A stretch of DNA of 64,000 nt from Eledone cirrhosa (lineage: Eukaryota). Below, in pieces: positions 16,211 to 62,829 of the stretch. Positions within the stretch are counted from its first letter, which is position 1, and every line of letters begins with the position of its first letter. The position numbers were made by a program, and so were the translations under genes. A model generated the notes under the pieces. That model worked only from the letters and a program-made list of their open reading frames with translations. It was not told where the DNA came from and searched no databases. Where the stretch lies: the NCBI GenBank assembly GCA_964016885.1, contig OZ024742.1, forward strand, positions 152,644,001 to 152,708,000, given 5' to 3'.

Positions 16211-17707
16211 CGGAACATGTAGCTGGAAGCTGGAAAGATTGGGGGAGAGTAGGCAGTTGCTTTGGTGATCAAAGTAATCCAGAACTTTGGGTGTTCTTCA
16301 TTGATCCTTGGTGGCGCACCCGCATAATGGAGAATACTGTTGTTATCTATTCATTTTTAATTGCTTTGCCTGTTACCAGGGTCGGCTCGAAAGTTCAATC
16401 GCTAAAACGTCCATAGGCCGGCAAAAATACTCTAATGGAATGATCAAAAGGGATTTATTTTTCAACATAGTGCCTGGAAAGAAACAATGCAGTTATTAAT
16501 AAGGAAAGTTGAAATTAATATATGCGAGATGTCACAGATCTAGCAATACTCCTTTATAGTCAGCCTATAACCGTTTCAGCCGAGATTCGTATTTCCCATT
16601 GTCCTTCAATTGCATGTAAATTATCATTTTTTTGTTATTTCTATTGTCCTTAATGTTTTCATACCGAGTGTCCAATAAGTAGTAACTATCTAAACTATAA
16701 TAAAGTAAGAAGCGCGGGACTGCATAAGGTTTATAATTTTTATCCCCTTAGTAAAATAAGTTGGATTACTTTCAAGAAATAATTGTTTCTACTTTAGGCA
16801 CAATGCCAGCAATTATCCAGTACATTACTGGTACTTTATTTACTTTGAATAAATAATTGTTTCTACTTTAGGCACAAGGCCAGCAATTACCCAGTGCCTT
16901 ACTGGTACTTTATTTTATCTACCCCGTAAGGATGAAAGGCAAAGTCTTGAATAAATAATGAATGAATATTACATAATTTATCCACTAAATTTCGTGGCTG
17001 TTCATTAAATATATTTTATTACTTATTTAAAGATTCACATCTTTAAAATTTTCAAAAGTCAACACTTCCGGTTAGCGATCGTTTAAATAAATATTCATAT
17101 ATTTATGTCACTAATTTTCTCCTAATGCAGTTTATATATAATATCGCCTTTTTTTAATGTATCATGGATTACGTTACTGATTACAGAAGACAGTGTAACA
17201 CAGTCTTCGTTCAAATTCTGTATCATATCTATATGCATATATACTTGTGTATAATATCAATATACACACTACACAAGCTAGAAGAAAACCACCCGAAGGC
17301 TGGTTTTCCTGCTTGTATTTATAATGATTTCTATTACAGGCAAAAGGTAAGCAATTTACAGAGAGGGAAAAGTCGATTAATTCGACCCAAGTGCATTACT
17401 GGCTCTTCATTTTATCGACTTTGTAACAAAGCTTACCTTGGTGGTATTTGAACTAGTAATTATAGTAATTATAGTAATTATCACTACTACCACTAATATT
17501 AGTTAGCTAATCGGATTATTTGTACACTATGTAGATTTTATTTTGTGCACATTACATTATAATTTCTCCATATCGTTTTGTAAAATACAAAATACATTTA
17601 TTGAGAAAAAAATGGATAATATATAATAACAAAGACCAGAATTGTATGTAGATCGACCTGAATGATTGTTCGTTTGATACATATTATTTACTGTATTTGT
17701 AAATAAT

Positions 17708-27058: not shown

Positions 27059-28297
27059 AAGATGAAGTTGGAAATAGCACGGGAGATATATTTAAGGGTC
27101 TGTTTTTATTTTGTGATTCGTGAAAGTGACATTATTGAACAGATAGTGTTATTAAAAAAAGATAATGTTATTAAAAGAAGAGAGGGACAATTCCCCTTTA
27201 AAAGTATTTTTATGAAGTATATAAAGTATATGAGAATAAAATACCGGTTTCAAAGTATTAAAATCCATCTTGTCAAATGTAGTGTAAAAAGTTAATTAAA
27301 AAGAGTTGATAGGAGTAAAAAAAGAAAGGTTTAAAATTAAAATCAAAATCGAATGTTTGAGTAATTTTTCTTCCATCATGCTTCTTGATAAGTTGGCTGC
27401 GAACGCACCATCAACTTTCCCTATGAACAAATCACAAATAAACATTCTAAATCGGATCTCTCCAAACACGAATGGAAAGAATTATACACACTGCGAAACA
27501 ACAGTGAAATAACCATCAAAGAAGCTGATAAAGAGTGCACTGTAGTCATTCTGTACACTGACTACTATAGAGACCTGGCACTCAAAATCTTAGTCGATAT
27601 TTATGTATCTTTGGTAAGCCGTAGAAAGCACTTGTATTACATTTGAAATGGCTCATGTATTCAAATTCCTTTGGAGTTAGGCTACTGCGGTATCTTTGCA
27701 ATAATGCTAGGAGGTTCCCCAGAGTTTTAGTTTGTTTGTAGTTTGCTGTGTTTTCGTAGTATCTGTTGTCGTCTAAGATTTTGAGTGCCAGGTCTCTATA
27801 GTAGTCAGTGTCGGTAATGACTACAGTGCTCCCTTTATCAGCTTCTTTGATGGTTATTTCATTGTTGTTTCGCAGTGTGAATAATTCTTTCCATTCGTGT
27901 TTGGAGAGGTTCCATTTCGTGTATTTATTTGAGATTTGTTCATAGGGAAATCTGATGGTGCGTTCGCAGATAAGCTTTCAAGAAGCATGATGGAAGAAAA
28001 ATTATTCAAACATTCGATTTTGATTTTAATTTTAAACCTATTTTGTTTTACTCCAATAACTATTTTTAATTAACTTTTTTCACTACATTTGAAAAGATGG
28101 ATTTTAATACATCGAAACCGGTAATTTTTTCATATACTTTATATACTTCATAAAAATATGTTTAAAAAAGAATTGTCCCTCTCTTCTTTTAATAACATCA
28201 TCTTTTAATAACACTATCTTTCAAATAATGTCACTTTGACGAATCAAAAAAAGGAAAATAGACCCTTAAATATATCTCCCGTGCTATTTCCAACTTC

Positions 28298-31439: not shown

Positions 31440-31502
<63 letters not shown>

Positions 31503-31632
31503 GAAGGAAATGTGATAAGGAACCAGGTGGACCATAACGAACCAAAGTACTCAATACTTAGGGTAGTAGAGTGGGTAATAGGAACGAGTAGGACCCCGAC
31601 TAGTCCAGAATTAGCCGTCGAAACGGCTTGAG

Positions 31633-31736
<104 letters not shown>

Positions 31737-31751
31737 TATTTATTAAAAATA

Positions 31752-31827
31752 ACAGATTAAAGTTTAAGCAAAGAATCGCTGCTTTCACCCTTAACGGGAT
31801 CTTCTGAAACTAACAAAGTCAATCTGT
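31752..31827 (-). ncRNA. Extended type I hammerhead-like RNA with CAGAAGA core
   Basis: acagattga...gttt-CAGAAGA-t-ccc-gttaa-ggg-t-GAAA-gcag-cgattct-ttgc-TT-aaac-t-ttaatctgt: all three stems pair, and distal stem I is 9 bp. Confidence 0.75.
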
Positions 31828-32269
31828 AAACGCAGAAGTGGATATTTCAAAAAACGTTGCAACCGGAGGAAGACAGGTAGACGATACTTTGGTTCGTGGA
31901 AACGTTCGCTGGCAAAGAACGGGAAAAAACGAATATAATACGTCATTAATAGGAGCGGTGAAAAACAATTACGCGCAAAGACAGAACCACGTTTATGGTA
32001 TAGAAGAGGTCGTAGACTAATGTTCTCTTAGGTGGTTCATAGAGACGTTCTCTGGCAATGAACGAAAAAAACGAAGATAATACGTGATATGTGGAGCGTG
32101 GATAACAATAGCATGCAAAGACAAAACCACGTAAATGGTATAGCAGAAGTCGTAGACTAAAATTCTAACTAGGAGACCGAATGAATATCCGCTACGGTTC
32201 TTATATATTTGATATATATTTATCCTTATCGAGCCCTCTTTGGATTCTAGTCTTCAAATATATTATTAT

Positions 32270-32329
<60 letters not shown>

Positions 32330-32383
32330 CGGCGATGAATTAGTTTTACGAGGTTTTTTATATGAAATCGTGAGTCGAAACAA

Positions 32384-32765
32384 ATATTGTTATTCTTGGG
32401 GAGGGTCATATTTGTGTAATATTGCCAGAATTATTAACAGAACACACTCACTGTTTGGTTGGTTTTCGCTTTTCGCTTCTGTGTCTTTTATATCGGTAAC
32501 CTACTTTACTCGGTCCTCAATGTTGCCATTGACGGACCGACGGTCACAAATAATACAGTACAATATGGACACATAACATATATATAGTTTATCATAAATC
32601 TTTCGTTGCACATCTGCAACATCGTCAGTGGTGCTATTATTTCCTCCCGTTGTATTGTATGTCTACGCCATTTTTATTCAGTCTGTCTATATATTTATTT
32701 ATTTATTTGCTCGTTTGTTTATTTTATTTTGTCTCCTTTGCGCATGCGTTTGCGTGTGTGTATAG
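32384..32765 (-). mobile_element. Solo PLE 3' end/pLTR of a related subfamily, with an HHR at 32591-32632
   Basis: Terminus atattgttattcttggggagggtcat resembles the PLE end at 56545; minus strand acca-CTGACGA-t-gttgca-gatg-tgcaac-GAAA-gatt-TA-tgat. Confidence 0.7.
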
Positions 32766-32775
32766 GATTCGCACT

Positions 32776-32826
<51 letters not shown>

Positions 32827-33118
32827 TATCGATTATGGTCAGGCGCAGATTTTCTGGCAAGGAAGCCGAGAGCCAGATAAGTATGTTTCCACAGGTCTCT
32901 ACGAGACATCAATCCCTGTATCTCAGATACCAGCTGAGTATTCTAGTCATTGAGCTAAGGTTATTCTGAAACTATTTTACTGTCTGAATTAAGGAGATGT
33001 CTGTAGCAGCTTGTCATTGTAAACAACAGCTCAGACTTGCGAAGCGATGCTTATTTTAATTAAATTACATATATAGAGAATAATATAATTTGATTAAAAT
33101 AATTTATATATCCATTTT

Positions 33119-33248
33119 ATTAAGGTTAAATAATGAGTCTTGTTACTCTGGAGTATAGCGTGTTTATCACAGTGTCATCAATTCCTTTTGGATGACCCTG
33201 TGATAAACAGGTCAAATTCCAGAGTAACACGATTCTATTTAGTCTTAA
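33119..33248. repeat. Imperfect ~130-bp hairpin
   Basis: tgttactctgga...tgtttatcacag.gtcatc pairs with gatgac.ctgtgataaaca...tccagagtaaca. Confidence 0.75.
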
Positions 33249-33339
33249 TACACTGAATATGAAGCTCTACGTCGCTATGCAGTACTTGTTTCTCTCAGCC
33301 ATCAACCACATACGGATATATATATCTATATATAAATAT

Positions 33340-33750
33340 AAATTTAGCAAGAATCGTATTTCGGCTGTTAGAAAAAGCGAAACGAAACACAAAATCTTAG
33401 ATATGCTGGCAAACGCTCCAATAGTTAAGAAAACTAGTGCTAAACAATATGTTAAAACGCCATACAAACTGAAAAAGTGGTCAAGAAGTCATTAACCACC
33501 TAAGCCAAATAACAAATCAAGCTAAACAGGTCAAACAAAATAAATTATAAAAACAGACCTGGATGCAAATGGATTTGATGATAAAATCCAAATGCAGGGT
33601 TTCTATGCCATCTAAACCAATAATACTCTCTGCGTAAAACTATAAGCTTTTAGCATAATGTTCGGACAAGGAATATCACGTTATCAACAGGTATTTTGCT
33701 CTGCCGAATTTTGTGAATGACGTAGAACTTTGTAAAAGCACATGTGTAAC
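33340..33750 (+). repeat. Unclassified dispersed repeat (other copies reversed at 22270-22585, 52390-52750, 56317-56460)
   Basis: Shared text agcRagaatcgtatttcggct...tggcaaRcgctcca...atgttaaaacgccatacaa...aaaagtggtc; no recognisable protein. Confidence 0.7.
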
Positions 33751-33751
33751 T

Positions 33752-33840
<89 letters not shown>

Positions 33841-33848
<8 letters not shown>

Positions 33849-34096
33849 ACACTTTGGGAGGGCCATGTTGCCAATAAGAAACACACGCACCAACTGCTTT
33901 CACTTCAATTTATTATAATAAATTTATAAATTTAGGAATTTATAAATTTCCGGTTGGTTGGTTGGTTCCACAACCAGATGGTTGTTTATAAAGTTCTTTC
34001 GTCACACATTCTGTGAACTCTTCAGTGACTAGAGATTCTTTTCTTTGTATCTTTTTGCCTCTCCTTTGTTCTGTCCTACGCCATCTTGTTTTTGTG
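33841..34096 (-). mobile_element. Solo 3' terminus (pLTR) of the 56545-62082 PLE family, with an HHR at 33987-34029
   Basis: Near-identical to 56545-56806; abuts (TA)n on the left and the tandem array on the right. Confidence 0.9.
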
Positions 34097-34103
34097 ACAC
34101 ACA

Positions 34104-36302
34104 TTATGCATATTATGCATATTAACGGCTGAGCAGCCTAATTTGCATATCGAGTGAATTAATCGGTCGGGCGCACCGAAAACGATAGACGGAAAAAATG
34201 AGACGAAATTTCATTTCTCACTCTTAGTACGGCTGTTACATAAATATAAGTATGTATACGTACATACATATATGTATACAGACGTACAGTAATATGTATA
34301 TATATATATACATACATGCACACATATATATATGTACGTATGGATTTACGACAATTTATTATAATGCTCGGTGTGTTCGCAAACAAACATCACGAATTAA
34401 GACGTACAGTGTTTAGCAACCATCGTTGCTCTTTTGTTTAACACTGAGAAAGGAACGATGTACTAGTTTCAAGCTTATTAGCTATCTTCAGCACCGTATA
34501 CCTTCCTGTCAGGTGATTGAACGTGTGGAAGTATATACTTTCCTTATGCATATTAACAGCTGAGCAGCCTAATTCGCATATCGAGTGAGTTAATCGCCCA
34601 GGCGCACCGAAAACGACAAAATGAAAAAATGAAACTTGTCACTCTTAGTACGGCTGTTACTTAAATATAAGTATGTATACGTACATACATATATGTATAC
34701 AGACGTACAGTAGTATGTATATATATATACATACATGCACAAATATATATATGTACGTATGGATTTACCGAACATTTATTATAATGTTCGGTGTGTTTGT
34801 AAACATACATCACGAATTAAGACGTACAGTGTTTAGCAACAATCGTTGCTCTTTTGTTCAACACTGACAAAAGAACGATGTACTAGTTTGAAGCTTATTA
34901 GCTATCGTCAGCACTGTATACTTTCCTGCCAGATGATTGACTGTTAGAAAGTATATACTTTCCTTATGCATATTAACTGCTGAGCAGCCTAATTTTCATA
35001 TCGAGTGAGTTAATCGGCCGGGCGCACCGAAAACGATAAACGGAAAAAATGAAACGAAATTTCATTTCTCACTTTTAGTACGGCTGTTACTTAAATATAA
35101 GTATGTATACGTACATACATATATGTATACAGACGTACAGTAGTATGTATATATATACAGATACATGCACACATATATATATATATGTACGTATGGATTT
35201 ACCGAAATTTTATTATAATGCTCGTCGTGTTTTGTAAACAAACATCCCGAATTAAGCCGTATAGTGTTTAGTAACCATCATTGCTCTTTTGTGCAATACT
35301 GACAAAGGAACGATGTACTAGTTTCAAGCTTATTAGCTATCGTCAGCACCGTATACCGTCCTGCCAGATAATTGAACGTCTGAAAGTATATACTTTCCTT
35401 ATGCTAAGAGTGAGAAATGAAATTTCGTTTCATTTTTTCCGTTTATCGTTCTCGGTGCGCTCGGCAGATTAACTCACTCCATATGCAAATTAGGCTGCTC
35501 ATCCGTTAATATGCATAAGGAAAGTATATACTTTCAGACGTTCAATCGTCTGGCAGGAAGGTATACGATGCTGACGATAGCTAATAAGTTTGAAACGAGT
35601 ACATCGTTCCTTTGTCAGTGTTGAACAAAAGAGCAACGATGGTTACTAAACACTGTACGGCTTAATTCGGGATGTTTGTTTACAAACACACCGAGCATTA
35701 TAATAAATGTTCGGTAAATCCATACGTACATAAATATGTGTGTGCATACATGTATATATATATACATACTACTGTACGTCTGTATACATATATGTATGTA
35801 CGTATACATACTTATATTTAAGTAACAGCCGTACTAAGATTGAGAAATGAAATTTCGTTTCATTTTTTTCCGTTTCTAGTTTTCGGTGCGCGCGGCCGAT
35901 TAACTCACTCTATATGCAAATTAGGCTGCTCAGCCGTTATTATGCATAAGGAAATATATACTTTCAGACGTTCAATCATCTGGCAGGAAGGTAAACGGTG
36001 CTGACGATAGCTAATAAGTTTGAAACTAGTACATCGTTCCTTTGTCATTGTTGAACAAAAGAGGAACGATAGTTGCTAAAACTCTACGGCTTAATTCGGG
36101 ATGTTTGTTTACAAACATACCGAGCATTATAATAAATGTTCGGTAAATCCATACGTACATATATATGTGTGCATGTATCTGTATATATATACATTCTACT
36201 GTACGTCTGTATACATATATATAAGTACGTATACATACTTATATTTAAGTAACAGCCGTACTAAGAGTGACAAATGAAATGTTGTTGCATTTTTTCCGTT
36301 TA
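34104..36302. mobile_element. Head-to-head tandem array of a 420-435-bp HHR-containing non-coding unit (retrozyme-like)
   Basis: Three units with the HHR on the - strand (34113-35404) and two-plus units with it on the + strand (35404-36302). HHRs at 34455-34497, 34875-34917, 35310-35352 (-) and 35565-35607, 35995-36037 (+). Confidence 0.9.
35995..36037 (+). ncRNA. Minimal type I hammerhead ribozyme (representative array copy)
   Basis: acggtg-CTGACGA-t-agct-aata-agtt-t-GAAA-ctag-TA-catcgt: 6-bp stem I, intact core, palindromic stem III ACTAGT, GUA cleavage triplet. Confidence 0.9.
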
Positions 36303-36552
36303 TATATATATACATCGATTGGTACAATCATTGGTACATTTATACATTTATATTTATAAAGTCGGAGGAGATTTGTGAGGTAGAGTAAGGCGTTATATAT
36401 TTTATTGACGATTAGCTCTCATTTAGGAGGTGGGAGATAGTATTTATGACTTTCTCTAATTATTAGATATATGATTTTTTACTGAACGATTTTGTTTTCA
36501 TAAGCTATCCGACAATTATCGATAGTTTCTTATCAATAATCCAATAATGACG

Positions 36553-36579
36553 CTACTACTACTACTACTACTACTACTG

Positions 36580-36638
<59 letters not shown>

Positions 36639-36649
36639 ACTGCTGCTCT

Positions 36650-36712
<63 letters not shown>

Positions 36713-37990
36713 CACTACTACAACTAATACTACTGACAATGATACTAATAATAATAGTTTCTTCATTGGCCACTAGACCCTACACGAAGGGGATAATATA
36801 AAAAAGTGGAGAGTAGAGTCCCTACAAAAAAACATCGACTATAAATGTGTATAAGTACAAAATCAATTAACAGCAAAATTATAACAAAATAAAATCCCCT
36901 ATAGGTGGAGCACGACCCAGGGGCGACTCATTTACCCCTCCAATCCTAACTACGAGAGACTTCGAGATAACCCGGGAAGGGCACTCCCAGCCTCAAATCA
37001 ATAAACCTACATGCGCATGCTAAAATGGTCATTCTTGCAACACCCCCCTACCTTTTAGCAAATGTACTGGGGTTAGCGATTATTTTTCCACACTCACCTT
37101 TCTTTCTAATTGAAACTTGGAAAAGTTGGTGAGGGATGAGACGAAGTGAAAAGTGTGTCTTCAGATCTTGTATCCTCTAGAGTAGATGTTCCACTGGCCA
37201 CATTTCCCGCCTGATGGAAAGCAGGGAGTTCCTAGCAAATTTCCAGATGCCAGTCGTTAAGTCTCTGGTTCTTCTCGGCCAAGGACTGTAGCTCAATCAA
37301 AATGACGAGTTGCTAAAAGGCTTTTCACACAAACAGTGACCAGACATGTTCACCGTTTACGCAGTATATCTGTAGATGCCCTAGCCACAGCGCATATTTG
37401 CGCATCATCAGCCACAGCATGCGCAATCCTCCGCGTGGAGTGTGCTGGCAGAAGATGGTGTGCCTGACCAATGGAATCTGTTCGTTCCATGAAAAGAGGA
37501 AGAATATACTTTCCAATGTGGTGAGTTGCGAACGGGGGAAAAACACGACGGTCAAGGAGTAGTAGGAGACGGCTGCTATGTACGGGTACGTCAGCTCCAC
37601 TCGCCCTTTCATAGATAGCTTTCTTTCAACCCAGTTTCGGGTGAGTGTGGCCACCCTGGTCGTTAACTAATCCCAGTTTTATCCTCCTGAAGTTCTGGTA
37701 TAAACCAGATCCCTCGTAACTTCAACGATCCAAGACATCTGCCTTTCGCAGCGATCAGTACCAGCTGGCAAGTCGTGCGGTAGACCGTCGATATAGGAAC
37801 TGGAATCCACTACAGTCCCCGACGCCTCGCTCCCACCGAACAGCTGAGCAAAGTGCTAACTAAATGCCTCTGTCTGGAATCGTTCAGCCCATGTTCCTAT
37901 CTTTCCGTCAAAGATCGAATTGTGGCTTTGCTGCGACGCTGCGTTTCTGTCACTTGGGTCCATCGAGTAGCTTTCGTCCTCTCGAACTCT
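36553..37990 (-). mobile_element. Decayed Tx1-like LINE 3' portion ending in (TAG)n
   Basis: ORF 37325-37654 WVERKLSMKGRVEL...PRGGLRM matches the L1/Tx1 W..R.LS..GR and P...GGL motifs; 3' UTR runs into (CTA)n at 36553-36720. Confidence 0.75.
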
Positions 37991-50597: not shown

Positions 50598-52272
<1,675 letters not shown>

Positions 52273-53559: not shown

Positions 53560-55876
53560 AATACACTTACAACTTGCGTAATAAAAAATAAATTAATACC
53601 ACAATGGTACACATCTCTTAAAAACAGGAAATTCTCCTTTTGGAAGATGATACAAAACAACAACAAAGCGGAAATCTATGAAAAATAGATTAACTCATCC
53701 CCATTAATCACCTCCGCAAACTACAAATTAAATCCATCCCAAACGAACCCGAGAAACAAAGACGCCTCGGGGAAAGAATGGCACTTGATAGCATAAAAAC
53801 CGAAATTGAAATCCTAAAATTAAGAGCCCAATCAAATGAAGATAGGATCAAATCAATCGAGGATGAGATTAATCAAGCAATTATCAATAAAACCAAAGAC
53901 ACCACCCTAGAAAATATTTCAAAATTATGGTTAGAGGACTGTAATAAGGAAGAATTAAAATCCCTTCAACGTTGGAAAATAAACGGAACCTGGTTCTCTA
54001 AATATGAAGCACTTTTCCAAAAAGAACACACATCCAAAAACCCCTTCATTAAAACCATAATAACGAGAAAACTCAATCAACACCCAAACACCACACAACA
54101 ACCAACATCAACAAAAAAACAATACCTCCCCACATACCAAAGAAAGAAGGCATCACCTCGCCCCTGCCTTCTACACCCTCCCCATAACTACCACACGGAT
54201 TCCCAAGCAACAAATATAGTAATAGAGAAACATCAGCCTCAAGATAGACACTACAACTTCTCTCCCACCAGGAGAATCCATAAAACCCCCTACACTTACA
54301 ACCCACCTAACATCCCCACACAACAAACCTACAACCATCATTACTTCCAACATAGAACCCAAAATACACAACTACCACACATGTCACATAGGGGCTCACA
54401 ACCACACACCAACTATAAGGAAACCGTAATATACCCTCCTCCACTAACCACATCCTACTACAACAACAGCAGCAGGGGACAATACAACCACACGAGACAC
54501 CCTAACCACTACAATCACCATAACTACACACCGTATAACAACAACAGCAGGATTCAATATAACCACACAAGATAACCCTACTACAACTACCACTATGTCT
54601 ACACACCCTACAACAACAGCAGTGCTCAGCACAACCATACGATACATCCCAACTTCAACAACCACCACAACTTCACACCCTATAACAACGTCCATCAAAT
54701 CTACACACTCTACAACATCATCAGGGCTCAATACACGATACAACCTAACTTCAACAACCACCACAGCTACACACCATCTAACAACAACAGCAGAGGCCAA
54801 TACAACCAGAAGAGACATCCAAACTTCAACAGCCACCACAACTTCCGTAATCATTTTTCAGACACAGCACACAGAAACAGGATAACAAGATAACACAAAA
54901 CACACACGAGACACAAAATATAATAAAAATTGTTAATTTAATCTCTAAAGAATTAACAACAGTCCAAATCAACATACTCTCCAAAAATCTAAAATTTACA
55001 TCAACTCCCCAACAACCAAACTATGCCGAAATGAAGGAAGATATTGCAGAATTCTGTGGAAAACTAAGATTCAGCGAGCAACTATACGACAAATACAATG
55101 AGGATGACTCAATAGCCAGAAATAGAAGCAACTACACCCCACCAAAAGGCAAGAACAAATTCCTCGATCAATTCTTCGAACACATTACTAATTACCCATA
55201 CCACCACCTACACAGACATAAGCAAAAACCAAACATAAGCCAAAAAGAATGGAATGGTCTTAACAGTCTAAAAAAGACAAAACACTAACAATCAAAGAGG
55301 GAGATAAAGGGAGTGCAGTAGTCCCTATGGGGACATATTATTACACGACTCTAGTACTCTCAACTCTAGAAAACCAAATATATTATGAAAAGCCCCAACA
55401 CTACACACAACAGAAAATAATGAGAAACCTAAAATCCCTAACAACCCTTTACAAATATAACTTACAGACTTACAGACAAGGAATACAACTACATCATCAA
55501 TTTCAAAAGCAGAACCAGCCTATTCTACAGTATCCCAAAACACACAAGAGTGAAGTAATAGGTAGGGCCTGCAAGCAAGCCACATGCATTTACATCAATG
55601 TAGCGCCCCCCCCCCCCCCCCCCCCCCCCTGATGACCTTAAATTAAGACCCATAATAGCAGCTACCACATGTGAAACCCATCGCCTCAGCAACTTCCTAG
55701 AAATTCTACTTAAACCTTTCCTAAAATAACATAAAAAGCTTCATAAGGGACGACCTTGACATGCTCAACCACTTCCTAACAACACTCGATAATGAACATA
55801 CCCTACTAGTAACCTTTGATATCATCAATTTATATTCCAATATCCCACACAACCTAGGTAGAGAGGCAATACAATT
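53560..55876 (+). pseudogene. 3'-truncated, frameshifted Penelope-like element (N-terminal domain and first half of RT)
   Basis: ORFs 53778-54575, 55031-55288 and 55327-55632 plus intervening frames give LSKNLKF, IKEGDKGSAVV, PKTHKS, LRPIIA, HRLSNFLEILLKP and LVTFDIINLYSNIPH, all PLE RT motifs. Confidence 0.85.
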
Positions 55877-56132
55877 GAAAATGTTCCTTCTACCACTTTA
55901 TTAATTTTTTAAGCTAACTCCAACAATAACAACACTTAGAATGAAGAATGTTCTAACAACTGACCAATGAGAGGAGAAGAGGCCCTTTGCCACTGAAATT
56001 CATTTGTTTGAATTCATATGATTCCAGTTCCTCAGTGAAATAACAACCCAACCAGTAACTGGGCATATCAGAGTATTAACAAAATTATTCACCTCAATAA
56101 CATATGTACTTGTCTATACCACACTAATTCGG

Positions 56133-56544: not shown

Positions 56545-56552
<8 letters not shown>

Positions 56553-58662
56553 ATACTTTGGGAGGGTCATGTTGCCAATAAGAAACACACGCACCAGATG
56601 CTTTCAATTCAATTTATTATAAATTAAATTTATAAATTTAGGAATTTATAAATTTCCGGTTGGTTGGTTGGTTCCACAACCAGACGATTGTTCATATATT
56701 GTCAAAATTCTTTCGTCACACATTATGTGACCTCTTCAGTTACGGGATTCTTTTCTTTGTTTTTGTGCCTCTCATTTGTTCTGTCCTACGCCATCTTGTT
56801 TTTGTGTGTGTTGTGTGCTTAGTTTGCGCATGTGTTACATCCGGGTGTCTGTGTGTGTTTATATTTGTTTAGTTATTTGTTTATTTAGATGTTACAGGTT
56901 GGTTGTTTGTTCTATGTGTGTGTGTGTTTTGATTTTGTCCTTAATTGTAGGTTGTGATATTGCTATTCCATTCATGCTTTCTATTTAATTTTGGTTGGAG
57001 TTCATTTATGTTTATTGCCTCTGTGATTTGTCTAAAAATTGCGTGTTTTCTGTGTGTAGATTCTATTTTTATTTCTATGTTCTCTAATTTACCCTTATGT
57101 TCTATTTTAGCATGTTGGTAGAGTACAGATGATTCTTTACTATCTTGAAGCTCTCGCCAGTGTTCATTTATCCGTTCTCCTATACTACGAGCTGTCTCAC
57201 CTATGTACACTATATTCTTATCTCTAGATTGTCCTTCAGTACATCTTATGCTATATACTACATTTCTAGTTTTACAGTTAATATGGGGGCTTAGTTTACA
57301 GATTATACATTTCTTATCTATACAGGGAGGTCTTTGAAAAGGGTATGTATTGCTAATAAGAGTTTTTATGGAGGTACCTGGTCTTTCTACTATCTTAATA
57401 TTGAGTTTATGTTTATCTAGGGCCCTTCTGAATTTGTATGCTAATTCACCTCTAGGGGTTGTATTGATGAACATTACACTCTGGTATTTATTGCTGTCAT
57501 ACCATGAGTTTATTCTATTAACCTTATTCCTAGTTCTTTCTATTCTATTCCAAAATTTGCTCCTATACAAGGGGCAGGTCCCATTTGTATCATTATTTAT
57601 CATTTTCTACCATTTGGTTCTGGCTCCTCTATATACTCTGATCTTATCTCTCTGATTGTAAATAGAGAACTGCATACGGTGGATGAAGTGTTGTATGTGT
57701 CTCTCTAGTTCTTTGGGATTGCACATGCGGGACACGTTTCTCATCACCCGTACAAAATCCGCAATCAGTATGTTGATTTTGGTGTCGTCCGAAACAGCTG
57801 AGTTTCGGTGGATCAGATATTTGGAAGTCATGGGTTTGGCATAAAGGGAATGGAGGATCTGTTTTTTGTTATTGATAGTATCTAACCAGAGCTCTGTGTC
57901 TAGTACAGGTAATATATTGTTGGGGTGTTTGCTTGGGTAGTCTATAGTAACTCTAAAACTCTGGTGAATAGAGATAGCTATTTGCTGAATGCTTTCCATG
58001 GTGTTTTTCTCTAATTCCTGACTGTTCTATAGTGGGGGTGTGTTTACTACGATGTTTATATCATCAACGTAGCGGGAGTACATTATCAGGGTTAAGAGGT
58101 TGCTGTCTTCTATTTGTTCTTTAAGTGTAAGTTTAAGTCTATTGTCCCACCATACCATGAATAGGTTAGCTATGTCACCTGCAATGCCAACTCCAATGGC
58201 TGCTCCCTCCTCTTGGGCATATGTTTTTCCATTAAATTTGAACATATGTTCCTTAAGGGTTAATTTTATACTGGCTCCCACCGCCTGTGCAATCATTTTC
58301 TTTAGTTCATCGTGCTTTTCGGGGGTCCGTATGGCTCTGGTCCACCAGTTCCATCCATGTGTGTGATTTTCTTGGCCATTGAGTTAATGGTAGGTGGTCT
58401 GCTTCTTGCTGGTCTTGTAAGGCACTGGTTGCTAAGGTCATATGTATCTAGATAATTATTACTATAAGTAATTTTAAGTAGGAGTCCTACCTCACTGGTA
58501 TCAATCCCACGGAATTCAACATTGCTCTCACTGATCATTTCTACGCATTTCTCCACAGCAAAATCCACGCCAATAGATGGTTATAGGGACACAACATCCA
58601 TACTGCCTATTATGCAATTTGTTAGGTCCCTAGATCGGTTACCTTTGCTGATTCTGCTGAGG
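56545..58662 (-). mobile_element. Penelope-like element, inverted 5'-truncated copy (frameshifted RT and GIY-YIG; 3' HHR at 56701-56743)
   Basis: ORFs 58302-58568, 58027-58296 (QEEGAAIG, RYVDDI), 57607-57999 and 56941-57603 (NVVYSIRC...YIGET..R..EH). Confidence 0.92.
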
Positions 58663-60070
58663 TTATTTTCTCTGTCAGTATTGATAGTCTCCCTTCTCCT
58701 TTCAATCCTATTACCTTCCCTTCTTTCTGTGTTACTGTCATCATCTGTTTTCTATGTCTGTGTGTTTGTTAAGATTGTGCTGGTGGTGAGAGGCATAGAA
58801 TGTGTGTGTGTTGTTGTTGATGTGTGCTGTTGTTTATGTGTGTTGTTGTTGTTGTCTCCGTGTATGTTATTATTGTTGTTTGTGTCAGCGTGTCTGTTGT
58901 TGTTGTTTCTGAGTATGTTACTATTGTTGATGTGTGAGTTGTTGTTATCGTTATTTGTGTCTGTGTGTCTGTTGTTGTTGGGATGTGTGTTATATGTGTC
59001 TGTGCGTATATTTTTACTTTTGTTTTTTGTTTTTGTTTTTGTTTTTGAGGCTCCAACGTAATTTTGTAAATCATTTTTCTATTTCTGACAAGCATTTTAT
59101 CATATTTACCTTATTATATGTGGCATATTTAGACTATCAATACTGACATATAAAATAACCAGGACGAACACACAGACACACAAAATAGAGTAGATAATAA
59201 CAATGAGCCAGAGGAAAGAGACAGGAGTAATAATGAGAGACATATAAACAACCATGAGGCTGTTGGTGGAAATAGAAATAGAAACAACACAGTTAACAAT
59301 AACAATAGCAATAGTACACATAAAGCAGCAGCCTGGAAATCTACATTTTATGATCCTTCCGATAAGTCTTTCGACCTGCGACGAGTACACGCCACAACTT
59401 TAGCTTTTAACAAACGCACGCAATTGCCGTCGCAGGTCGATGAACAAACAAAAGCACAATTTAGTATAGCTAGATCTAAACTTAGAAACATTATAGAACA
59501 CTATAGTAAGAAGCAAAATAGAATCGAGGCCCAGCAACTGAGAGAAAAATCTGCAAATGGCTTGCGAAGGTCATGCAGCGCTCGCGTAATGGAGAGATTG
59601 CATGCTTTCCAACATACAAGTCTGGCAGAATGTCGGTTAACAATTTGTCAAACTACATCCAGGCAATGCAACCCGATATCACTAACACAAGAGAAGTAAC
59701 ACCACAAGAGCATTAGGATAGGGAAAAAAACCCTCAATCCCCATATGATGATATGGAAAAACATAATGCAGCCCAACGAAAGGACTTCCAACAACTTCCA
59801 GGCCTGGAACAATGAGGTGCCAGCGTTGTATGGGCTTCGAAAAGACCATAAAACGAACAGTGACCCTGTCACAGGACCACCGACACGGCCAGCCAGTCTG
59901 TGGAGCTAACATTGCTAGTAACTACAGACTTTCCTACTTCCTCTCCCTGATCATACGCCCCATCGTTTAAATGTCCCAAGATATATGTGACAGCACGGAG
60001 GAACTCCTCAGCAGAATCAGCGAAGGTAACCGATCTAGGGACCTAACAAACTGCATAATAGGCAGTATGG

Positions 60071-61687
60071 ATGTTGTGTCCCTATATCCATCTATTGATC
60101 AGTGAGAGCAATATTGAATTCCGTGGGATTGATACCAGTGAGGTGGGACACCTACTTAAACTTACTTATAGTAATAATTGTCTAGATACATATGACCTTA
60201 GCAACCTGTGCCCTACAGGACCAGCAAGAGGCAGACCACCTACCATTACCTCAATGGCCAAGAAAACCCACACAGATAGTTGGATCGGGTGGACCAGAGC
60301 CATACAGACCCCTGAAAACCACGATGAACTAAAGAAAATGATTGCACATGCGGTGGGAGCCAGTATAAAATTAACCCTTAAGGAACATATGTTCAAATTT
60401 AATGGAAAAACATATGCCCAAGAGGAGGGAGCAGCCATTGGTGTTAGCATTGCAGGTGACATAGCTAACCTATTCATGGTATGGTGGGACAATAGACTTA
60501 AACTTAAACTTAAAGAACAATTAGAAGACCTCTTAACCCTGATAATGAACTCCTGCTACGTTGATGATATAAACATCGTAGTAAAAACACCCCCACTCGA
60601 GAACAGTCAGGAATTAGAGAAAAACACCATGGAAAGAATCCATCAAATAGCTTACTCCATCCACCAGAGTATTAAAGTTACTATAGACTACCCAAGCAAA
60701 CACCCCAACCATCTATTACCTGTACTAGACACAGAGCTCTGGTTAGATACTATCAATAACAAAAAACAGATCCTCCATTCCCATTATGCCAAACCCATGA
60801 TTTCCAAATATCTGATCCCCCGAAACTCAGCTGTTTCGGACGACACCAAAATCAACATACTGATTGCGGATTTGGTACGGGTGATGAGAAACGTGTCCCG
60901 CATGTGCAACCCCAAAGAACTAGAGAGATACATACAACACTTCATCCAACGTATGCAGTTCTCTATTTACAATCAGAGAGATAAGATCAGAGTATATAGA
61001 GGAGCCAGAACCAAATGGGAAAAAATGGTAAATAATGATACAAATGGGACCTGCCACTTGTATAGGATCAACTTTTGGAATAGAATAGAAAGAACTACGA
61101 ATAAGTTTAATAGAATAAAATCCTGGTATGATAGCAATAAATACCAGAGTGTAATGTTCATCAATAGAACCCATAGAGGTGAATTAGCTTACAAATTCAG
61201 AAGGGCCCTAGATAAACATAAATTCAATATTAAGATAGTAGAAAGACCAGGTACCTCCATAAAAACACTTATTAGCAATACATACCCGTTTCAAAGACCT
61301 CCCTGTATAGATAAGAAATGTATAATCTGTAAACTAAGCCCCCATATTAACTGTAAAACTAGAAATGTAGTATATAGCATAAGATGTACTGAAGGACAAT
61401 GTATAGATAAGAACATAGTGTACAAAAGTGTGACAGCTCGTAGTATAGGAGAACGGATAGATCAACACTGGCGAGAGCTTCAAGATAGTAAAGAATCATC
61501 TGAACTCTACCAACATGCTAAAATAGAACATAAGGGTAAATTAAAGAACATAGAAATAAAAATAGAATCTACACACAGTAAACACGCAATGTTTAGACAA
61601 ATCACAGAGTCAATAAACATAAATGAACTCCAACCAAAATTAAATAGAAAGCATGAATGGAATAGCAACATCACAACTTACAATTAA
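60071..61687 (+). CDS. PLE reverse transcriptase (C-terminal part) plus GIY-YIG endonuclease; probably defective
   Basis: 538-aa ORF with QEEGAAIG, YVDD, LPVLD, CIDKKCIIC...CKTRNVVY and E..NI...LNRKHE. YIGE is mutated to YKSV and the N-terminal RT is out of frame. Confidence 0.85.
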   Translation: MLCPYIHLLISESNIEFRGIDTSEVGHLLKLTYSNNCLDTYDLSNLCPTGPARGRPPTITSMAKKTHTDSWIGWTRAIQTPENHDELKKMIAHAVGASIKLTLKEHMFKFNGKTYAQEEGAAIGVSIAGDIANLFMVWWDNRLKLKLKEQLEDLLTLIMNSCYVDDINIVVKTPPLENSQELEKNTMERIHQIAYSIHQSIKVTIDYPSKHPNHLLPVLDTELWLDTINNKKQILHSHYAKPMISKYLIPRNSAVSDDTKINILIADLVRVMRNVSRMCNPKELERYIQHFIQRMQFSIYNQRDKIRVYRGARTKWEKMVNNDTNGTCHLYRINFWNRIERTTNKFNRIKSWYDSNKYQSVMFINRTHRGELAYKFRRALDKHKFNIKIVERPGTSIKTLISNTYPFQRPPCIDKKCIICKLSPHINCKTRNVVYSIRCTEGQCIDKNIVYKSVTARSIGERIDQHWRELQDSKESSELYQHAKIEHKGKLKNIEIKIESTHSKHAMFRQITESININELQPKLNRKHEWNSNITTYN

Positions 61688-61888
61688 GGACAAAATGAAA
61701 ACAAACACACACATAGAACAAACAACCAACCAGTAACATGTAATAAAACAAATAAATAAACAATTATAAACACACACAGACACCCGGATGTAACACATGC
61801 GCAAACTAAGCACACAACACACACACAAAAACAAGATGGCGTAGGACAGAACAAAGGAGAGGCACAAAAACAAAGAAAAGAATCAACA

Positions 61889-61930
61889 GTCACTGAAGAG
61901 GGACACAATGTGTGACGAAATAACTTTGAC
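61889..61930 (+). ncRNA. Minimal hammerhead ribozyme in the PLE 3' region
   Basis: gtca-CTGAAGA-g-ggacacaatgtgtgac-GAAA-taac-TT-tgac; the sister copy at 56701-56743 has a perfect gtcaca/tgtgac stem II. Confidence 0.8.
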
Positions 61931-62137
61931 AATATATGAACAATCGTCTGGTTGTGGAACCAACCAACCGGAAATTTATGAATTCCTAAATTTATAAATT
62001 TAATTTATAATAAATTGAATTGAAAGCAACTGGTGCGTGTGTTTCTTATTGGCAGCATGACCCTCCCAAAGTATAACAATATCGGTTTCACCACACGTTT
62101 TCAGATAGAAAATCTTGCTAACAAATTCAGAAACGAA

Positions 62138-62223
<86 letters not shown>

Positions 62224-62325: not shown

Positions 62326-62829
62326 CAATCAGTTGTTTTACAGAGCAGGAAAATAAACCAGAATTCTTCACAACATAGGAACCGGCAAGCTAACACCCAG
62401 AATAAATGTAACTGTAGAACTAATAGAACTTGCCCCTTAGGTAATAATTGCTTAACCAAAGACATCATCTACTCATGCACCGTCAACGTAAACAACTCTT
62501 CTAAAACATATATAGGTTCTACTTCGACCAACTTCAAGATGAGATACAACTCGCACCTCAACTCTTTCAAAAAACACAATCTAGCCAGCTCCACTTCCTT
62601 ATCTAGCTACGTAGACTCTCTGAAAACTAGGAATATACCTTTTACACTGCAATGGGAAGTATTAGGTAGGGCCTCATCGTATAAACTACCGAATAAATTG
62701 TGTAATCTCTGCCTTCTGGAGACACATACTATAATCTTTTCGAAATTAGACATCCTTAATAGAAAGTCAGAGACATTTTCTAAATTACACAACAAAATAA
62801 TAATAAACTATATATACATTTATAATTAA
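62326..62829 (+). pseudogene. GIY-YIG endonuclease fragment of a different PLE clade (Naiad-like)
   Basis: The open frame extends upstream of the listed ORF: CNCRTNRTCPLGNNC..DIIY...YIGST..FKMRY..H..SF...STSLSSY...W...CNLCLLE...LNRKSE. Confidence 0.8.

Follow-up and report, generated by a model that had tools for sequence, protein, structure and literature searches.

Does an array of hammerhead ribozyme (HHR) repeats fused to the 3' end of a Penelope-like element (PLE) record a PLE reverse transcriptase (RT) changing templates, and does the joint name the helper of an animal retrozyme? The question is raised by one locus in a 64,000-nt window of the Eledone cirrhosa genome (contig OZ024742.1, positions 152,644,001 to 152,708,000; the window is the whole stretch of DNA analysed), for which an initial annotation had proposed both. 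PLEs were named a strong candidate helper of metazoan retrozymes by Cervera and de la Pena 2020 (PMC7229834), and a preprint (bioRxiv 10.64898/2026.07.22.740005) presents retrozymes as non-autonomous PLE derivatives, arguing from co-occurrence and from pseudo-LTR homology in Xenopus. A PLE-retrozyme link is already in print, and what appears to be new here is the type of evidence, namely insertion anatomy and chimeras; the literature searched, with supplements and most subscription journals outside its scope, contained no description of chimeras between PLEs and retrozymes or of a retrozyme tail. The features of the window are listed in Table 1.

Table 1. Positions in the window of the fused insertion and of related elements.
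Feature	Positions	Strand	Remarks
Sister PLE 3' end	32336-32790	-	own minimal HHR (32628-32597); similar tail
(TA)39	33767..33844		left half of target tract
PLE pseudo-LTR arm, 252 nt	33845..34096	-	5' breakpoint hot spot at 34096; short 3' end, without tail, at 33845
PLE minimal type I hammerhead motif	33991..34030	-	helix I 3' strand deleted
acacaca	34097..34103	+	first 7 nt of linker
ttatgcata	34104..34112		9-nt duplication of first unit bases
Three hammerhead repeat units	34113..35404	-	period about 420-431
HHR motifs of minus-strand units	34464-34491, 34884-34911, 35319-35346	-	
Inverted second arm, 2.1 units	35404..36303	+	ends at long (tailed) 3' end of unit
HHR motifs of inverted arm	35571-35601, 36001-36028	+	
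(TA)6	36301..36312		right half of target tract
Second array of the focal unit	51402..52272	-	
Two-armed head-to-head insertion of partner PLE family	56549..62140		short end 56549; long end with 58-nt tail 62140
Partner PLE RT-endonuclease frame	60062-61687	+	

The PLE family that takes part in the fusion, here the partner family, is abundant and potentially coding. Its 11-nt pseudo-LTR motif has 19,388 exact copies in the 3.0-Gb genome (control, 136), and copies outside the window contain uninterrupted frames of 1238-1257 aa (about 1240) in which DKS, YVDD and VYSIRC..YIGET motifs, recognised by eye, indicate an RT followed by a C-terminal GIY-YIG domain. Such a single ORF, together with pseudo-LTRs, a minimal HHR, an optional tail and an inverted 5'-truncated arm, characterises the family as an EN+ Penelope-like element, and its HHR motif fits the definition of the minimal type in PMC4209133. 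Atlas matches to the protein reached 0.96-0.97 and included RVT_1, GIY-YIG and HTH_animal clusters; a Pfam search on the family returned no RT or GIY-YIG match, and its RT was not recognised in a PDB sequence search. The linker finger before the endonuclease, CIDKKCITC (CX4CX2C), fits the CX2-5CxxC finger that is a feature of the Neptune/Nematis-type PLE clade (PMC8557442). In the L304 and L305 frames, a long asparagine/threonine-rich stretch of low complexity precedes the RT at residues of about 260-440, resembling the N-rich inserts described in PMC3846280.

The insertions of this family have a regular anatomy. In full-length copies (L305-L307), the 5' pseudo-LTR continues into the 58-nt tail and from there into the 5' UTR. 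At 29 loci that were not selected, all 29 arms end at, or no more than 4 nt from, one of two 3' sites, and two-armed insertions pair a short with a long end, the latter carrying the tail, in 12 of 12 cases; at least two exceptions to this pairing were seen among best-match loci. Six of 24 resolved 5' breakpoints at the unselected loci fall within a 15-nt hot spot. Breakpoints cluster just upstream of a AAGATGGCG motif (L305 3129-3470; window 61815-61841), which we take to be YY1-like, and this region is a candidate transcription start within the pseudo-LTR. Fold-backs from the hot spot often end after 30-35 nt. The cleavage triplet of the PLE HHR is CUU in the commonest subfamily, whereas two others have CUA and a longer helix I, and ribozyme activity may differ between subfamilies.

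The repeat fused to the PLE arm has the properties of a non-LTR retrozyme. Units measure 420-435 nt (420 for the focal period), and a 14-nt unit motif occurs in 26,827 exact copies genome-wide (control, 12). A type I HHR motif, altered in its core in one case, is present in all five focal units, in agreement with the tandem 150-450-bp units, each with a type I HHR, that define non-LTR retrozymes. The unit HHR has a palindromic helix III, and G-U, U-G and A-U variants occur at one helix I pair among 182 motifs. The unit is non-coding, since no ORF of at least 120 aa was found over 34113-36303, and its predicted circular fold is highly self-paired (z -7.4; none of 60 shuffles as good), as in other circles of this class. 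Both unit and PLE HHRs are minimal or dimer-type motifs found by pattern and not by a curated model; an Rfam scan of the window gave no HHR family at E<=1, only microsatellite-driven miRNA noise. When six HHR stretches were folded as single strands, they did no better than shuffled sequences, as expected of minimal motifs.

How these arrays end provides the strongest argument for their status as cargo, and it is independent of the focal joint. Among 52 unselected insertions, two fixed sites separated by 56 nt account for 61 of 77 outer array ends, which typically abut (TA)n, and every two-armed array in which both ends could be typed (13 of 13) combines a short end and a long one. The unit therefore shows the two tail-bounding 3' ends, the pairing and the (TA)n target expected of a non-autonomous element mobilised by a PLE. 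In vitro, the tail of PLEs lies between two internal RT start sites, and the PLE protein cuts and extends both strands (Frangieh 2024, PMC11167929); since that tail signature was called unique to PLEs, the two fixed ends and the short/long pairing of the unit are a PLE-specific signature. We conclude with high confidence that the ribozyme repeat is a cargo mobilised by PLEs. Tandem repeats of arrays and PLE copies together with their flanks were also seen (L240; G000:C1:14381936-14394387; periods about 2.6 kb and 4.1 kb), representing either local duplication or tandem full-length elements.

At the focal locus itself, the initial annotation had described an array fused to about 255 bp of PLE 3' end with (TA)n beyond it, and this description holds: the arm matches the partner-family arms at 56549-56806 and 62078-61824 by 88.6% and 86.3%, respectively, and spans the interval from the short 3' end to the 5' breakpoint hot spot. 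The array start at 34113 adjoins the linker, with no (TA)n between PLE arm and array, and the HHR motifs of the PLE (34025-33991) and of the units at the joint all lie on the minus strand, as had been stated. The PLE end does bear an HHR motif of its own, but not an intact HHR, because an 8-nt deletion removes the 3' strand of helix I; this ribozyme is likely inactive. One unit motif (34911-34884) is altered from GAAA to CAAA. The array begins at an internal unit position, at neither fixed 3' end; facing its long end, a short-end part of roughly 310 nt would be expected, and this is missing. Sequence comparison within the 64-kb window found no PLE sequence beyond the array, which sets aside a simple nested insertion. 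Private changes amount to 8/195 positions (4.1%) in the PLE arm and 60/1341 (4.5%) in the five units, all of which have six subfamily variants in common; both the ages and the variants fit a single event that used one template. The inverted second arm (35404-36303) was absent from the original description. The copies at 33845-36303 and 56549-62140 differ by about 4-6% from the subfamily majority, whereas the closest copies elsewhere average 1-3.5%, reflecting either older insertions or a faster-mutating region.

The 16-nt linker (34097-34112) consists of acacaca and ttatgcata, and the latter 9-mer recurs at 34113, confirming the duplication already reported. The string cacacattatg (34098-34108) is indeed also present in stem II of a PLE HHR at 56717-56727, but the origin from this stem that the coincidence had suggested is not preferred: the stem-II loop variant with this string is rare (7 of 165 PLE HHR copies), the focal arm has the majority variant, and its own stem matches the linker over 8 nt, not 11. 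At locus L042 the acacaca joint is identical and runs on as an inverted PLE arm, and loose ends at 34101-34103 were seen among public records compared at 99% likeness; acacaca most likely represents the initial 7 nt of an inverted, fold-back PLE arm. An ordinary fold-back start of 7 nt plus a 9-nt slip is the better reading of the linker.

Genome-wide, four patterns that allow a gap of 5-460 nt between the PLE motif and the unit motif (two motifs in two orientations) gave 38, 20, 33 and 56 exact matches, compared with about 40 under uniform placement; ten places of one scan duplicated those of an earlier one. Raw adjacency is not enriched and, with counts so near the uniform expectation, is uninformative by itself, and the adjacency count was dropped as a test of association. 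Most of the 56 matches in one pattern, like most co-oriented matches and the remaining matches in general, are PLE-array neighbours separated by (TA)n; at unselected array loci, a PLE is close by in 4 of 57. Direct PLE-unit joints, with an internal unit breakpoint and no (TA)n, were found at 34 distinct loci with differing breakpoints, a lower bound because an exact match to both motifs was required; all matches were mapped by BLAST, their classes were judged by eye, and about 15 ambiguous loci were excluded. In 33 of these the PLE leads into the unit, head to head in 26 and co-oriented, with at least 80 nt of co-oriented unit, in seven including the focal joint; the additional locus, L086, is the reciprocal joint of unit into PLE. 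Co-oriented junctions, whose genome-wide count had been put forward as the check on the proposal, are accordingly a minority. Uniqueness of the junction, which had been named as a refutation, applies to the exact joint, which a genome search that scored 40 of 2132 candidates found at no other place, but not to the junction class.

For the focal locus, a single event in which the partner family acted as helper and the repeat was copied in trans as a non-coding retrozyme is the reading that we favour, with moderate confidence. It is rather unlikely that a deletion instead fused two insertions made separately in one (TA)n tract, either as a target-site deletion when the PLE entered beside a pre-existing array or later, in which case the array would still be PLE-type cargo while the junction would be silent on template switch and helper. 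TA-separated neighbours, the raw material for such fusions, are common; the focal array lacks just the part that its short end should supply, and its junction belongs to the co-oriented class that deletion favours. Short templated linkers are also produced by end-joining repair. Moreover, outer ends are short plus long in 13 of 21 chimeras, much like chance, compared with 25 of 25 pure insertions (p 0.0008); it seems that each RNA was primed separately or that two insertions were fused. The orientation of the joints speaks against deletion: when PLE arms were joined in a simulation to points inside 61 real oriented arrays, 64-86% of the cases that would be detected were co-oriented, whereas 7 of 33 were observed (P<=6e-7), which rejects joining into a neighbouring array as the main source of junctions, with the proviso that centre-biased hairpin repair of palindromes lies outside the simulation and would weaken the test. 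Inverted PLE remnants in chimeras are all short, between 7 and about 70 nt, as in fresh fold-backs, the breakpoints of the PLE still fall in its native hot spot, and at L091 a captured unit sequence is sandwiched between a PLE short arm and a PLE long arm, the pair remaining complete. The ages of the focal arm and units also match; across chimeras, arm ages were uncorrelated (rho -0.27, p 0.14; 30 of 34 loci, with low power, and a neighbour control of 33 of 42 was also flat). The proposed switch of a PLE RT onto retrozyme RNA is partly supported, by the recurrence of the junction class, the hot-spot breakpoint, the compatible ages and the PLE signature, and is qualified at this one locus by the possibility of deletion.

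A single event could also have been carried out by the enzyme of another PLE family, either the sister PLE or one of the others in this genome, with partner PLE RNA and unit both as passengers. The unit's fusions at L011 (to a sister PLE) and L002 (to an element with no coding frame seen) imply that the partner need not supply the enzyme, and further PLE-like frames lie in the window; the partner is nevertheless the more abundant of the two families counted, has long frames and a matching tail, and forms more chimeras per copy, and we consider this alternative very unlikely. Still less probable is that the repeat is an amplified piece of the partner pseudo-LTR, a cis-derived satellite as reported for Xenopus retrozymes (10.64898/2026.07.22.740005), with the junction as ancestral continuity. 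Unit and pseudo-LTR do not align significantly (154/200 and 109/200 shuffles score as well), so the homology to a helper pseudo-LTR seen in Xenopus is lacking here; the unit and PLE HHRs differ in all helices, and breakpoints vary between loci. A tail-to-tail alignment of unit and PLE is weak (3/300 shuffles as good, for one of 21 pairs tried), and origin of the repeat from the partner family is largely refuted. The least credible alternative is an assembly chimera of two abundant repeats. The joint is bridged by no contig or read in four public runs at 99%, a lack of bridging that proves nothing in itself, and these consist of fragmented short-read contigs or RAD reads, perhaps from other individuals; placement of runs over 32300-37300 was dominated by repeat matches, and contigs from runs X1 and X3 connect the right array end with its flank. 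Against a mis-assembly stand the ordered anatomy and differing linkers of the 34 loci and the private linker letters at the joint.

The single-event reading leaves the claim that the junction identifies the helper unsustained. The sister PLE (8,005 motif copies) is about 70% identical to the partner in the coding part, and its HHR differs by changes on both sides of helix II. It gave no clean direct junction in three head-to-head matches, compared with 23 of 31 loci for the partner family, and ten co-oriented matches, one of which has a short unit piece joined directly (L334); the preference of the unit for the partner is borderline after correction (p 0.02-0.16). Moreover, 46 free array heads from 84 loci not chosen for PLE adjacency include three direct fusions: one with the partner PLE (L018), one with a sister-PLE short arm (L011) and one with a short element that is not an HHR element (L002). 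Because the unit also fuses to the latter two, a chimera marks common machinery and not the source of the enzyme, and the partner family is the leading candidate helper, though not the sole one.

Other elements in the window share this setting. Three abundant short elements (31499-31636, 31742-32260 and 33318-33705) adjoin (TA)n, often in inverted arms; no HHR motif was seen in that at 31499-31636. Short elements of this kind fuse directly with a PLE (L200) and with the unit (L002), and the three are probably further PLE passengers. A cis motif common to the TA-targeting families was sought but not established. Fragments of other PLE-like families, with DKG motifs and a GIY-YIG frame, lie at 53560-55900, 27582-27977 and 62326-62829, indicating that the genome holds several PLE lineages. 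In addition, a near-perfect hairpin at 2342-2446, with a related 74-nt tandem at 16766-16915, is a dispersed repeat, since its sequence recurs inside L073 and beside L058.

Compared with known systems, the focal repeat resembles metazoan non-LTR retrozymes (PMC7229834) in its tandem units of a few hundred bp, type I HHR with short palindromic helix III, strong circular self-pairing and co-existence with PLEs. Its circular RNA form and self-cleavage are predictions, and its targeting of TA tracts, inverted arms, pair of fixed 3' ends and direct PLE fusions go beyond the accessible parts of that description. As for the Xenopus retrozymes (10.64898/2026.07.22.740005), PLE dependence is the conclusion, here from anatomy and chimeras in a unit without clear pseudo-LTR homology. 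Earlier studies of PLEs describe tails, inverted arms and a bias towards (TA)n as well as capture in trans (Craig 2021, PMC8557442; PMC3846280), and the focal elements share with the PLEs of PMC11167929 and PMC8557442 two start sites bounding an optional tail, extension of both strands (in vitro in the former work), inverted 5'-truncated arms, (TA)n bias and an HHR upstream of the start sites. However, the tail is 56-58 nt here as opposed to 30-40 and is present on a non-coding HHR repeat; strict short-plus-long pairing and two-family arms likewise exceed what the accessible parts of those two sources describe. The Penelope capture of Adineta vaga (PMC3846280) similarly mobilised foreign sequence with pseudo-LTRs, with template jumps proposed, and non-autonomous Chlamys elements such as MRC1 form head-to-tail copies (PMC8557442). 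Whereas these cargos need the helper's pseudo-LTR or its 3' end (PMC3846280, PMC8557442), the focal unit has ends of its own, with which it has inserted at tens of thousands of places.

On the single-event reading, the focal insertion would have arisen as follows. A PLE RT-endonuclease, acting as a predicted dimer, would nick both strands of a (TA)n tract, and each nick would prime cDNA at one of two fixed internal RNA sites. The left primer would copy the PLE pseudo-LTR from the short site to its natural 5' stop, followed by a 7-nt fold-back, and the cDNA would then jump with a 9-nt slip onto retrozyme RNA for about three rounds. The right primer would copy retrozyme RNA from its long site, and the left and right cDNAs would be joined head to head. 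More generally, the PLE machine may be a two-site enzyme that loads two unrelated RNAs together and writes both into one (TA)n break as a head-to-head or template-jumped chimera, the hammerhead circle, without pseudo-LTR homology, having evolved its own start sites about 56 nt apart; we hold this broader model to be evenly balanced.

Collectively, whereas the mobiliser of animal retrozymes has so far been proposed to be a PLE from co-occurrence and, in frogs, from homology, this genome provides, across tens of thousands of copies, footprints at the level of mechanism (tail, paired ends and mixed insertions). The predicted start nucleotides on both RNAs, together with the long partner frames, open the process to a direct test with the in vitro assay already published for PLEs, and the strict short-plus-long pairing, which is lost in two-family insertions, constrains how the inverted repeats of PLEs form. 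If two RNAs are indeed loaded together, the chimeras would be fossils of RNP stoichiometry, naming the enzyme-cargo pair for animal retrozymes.
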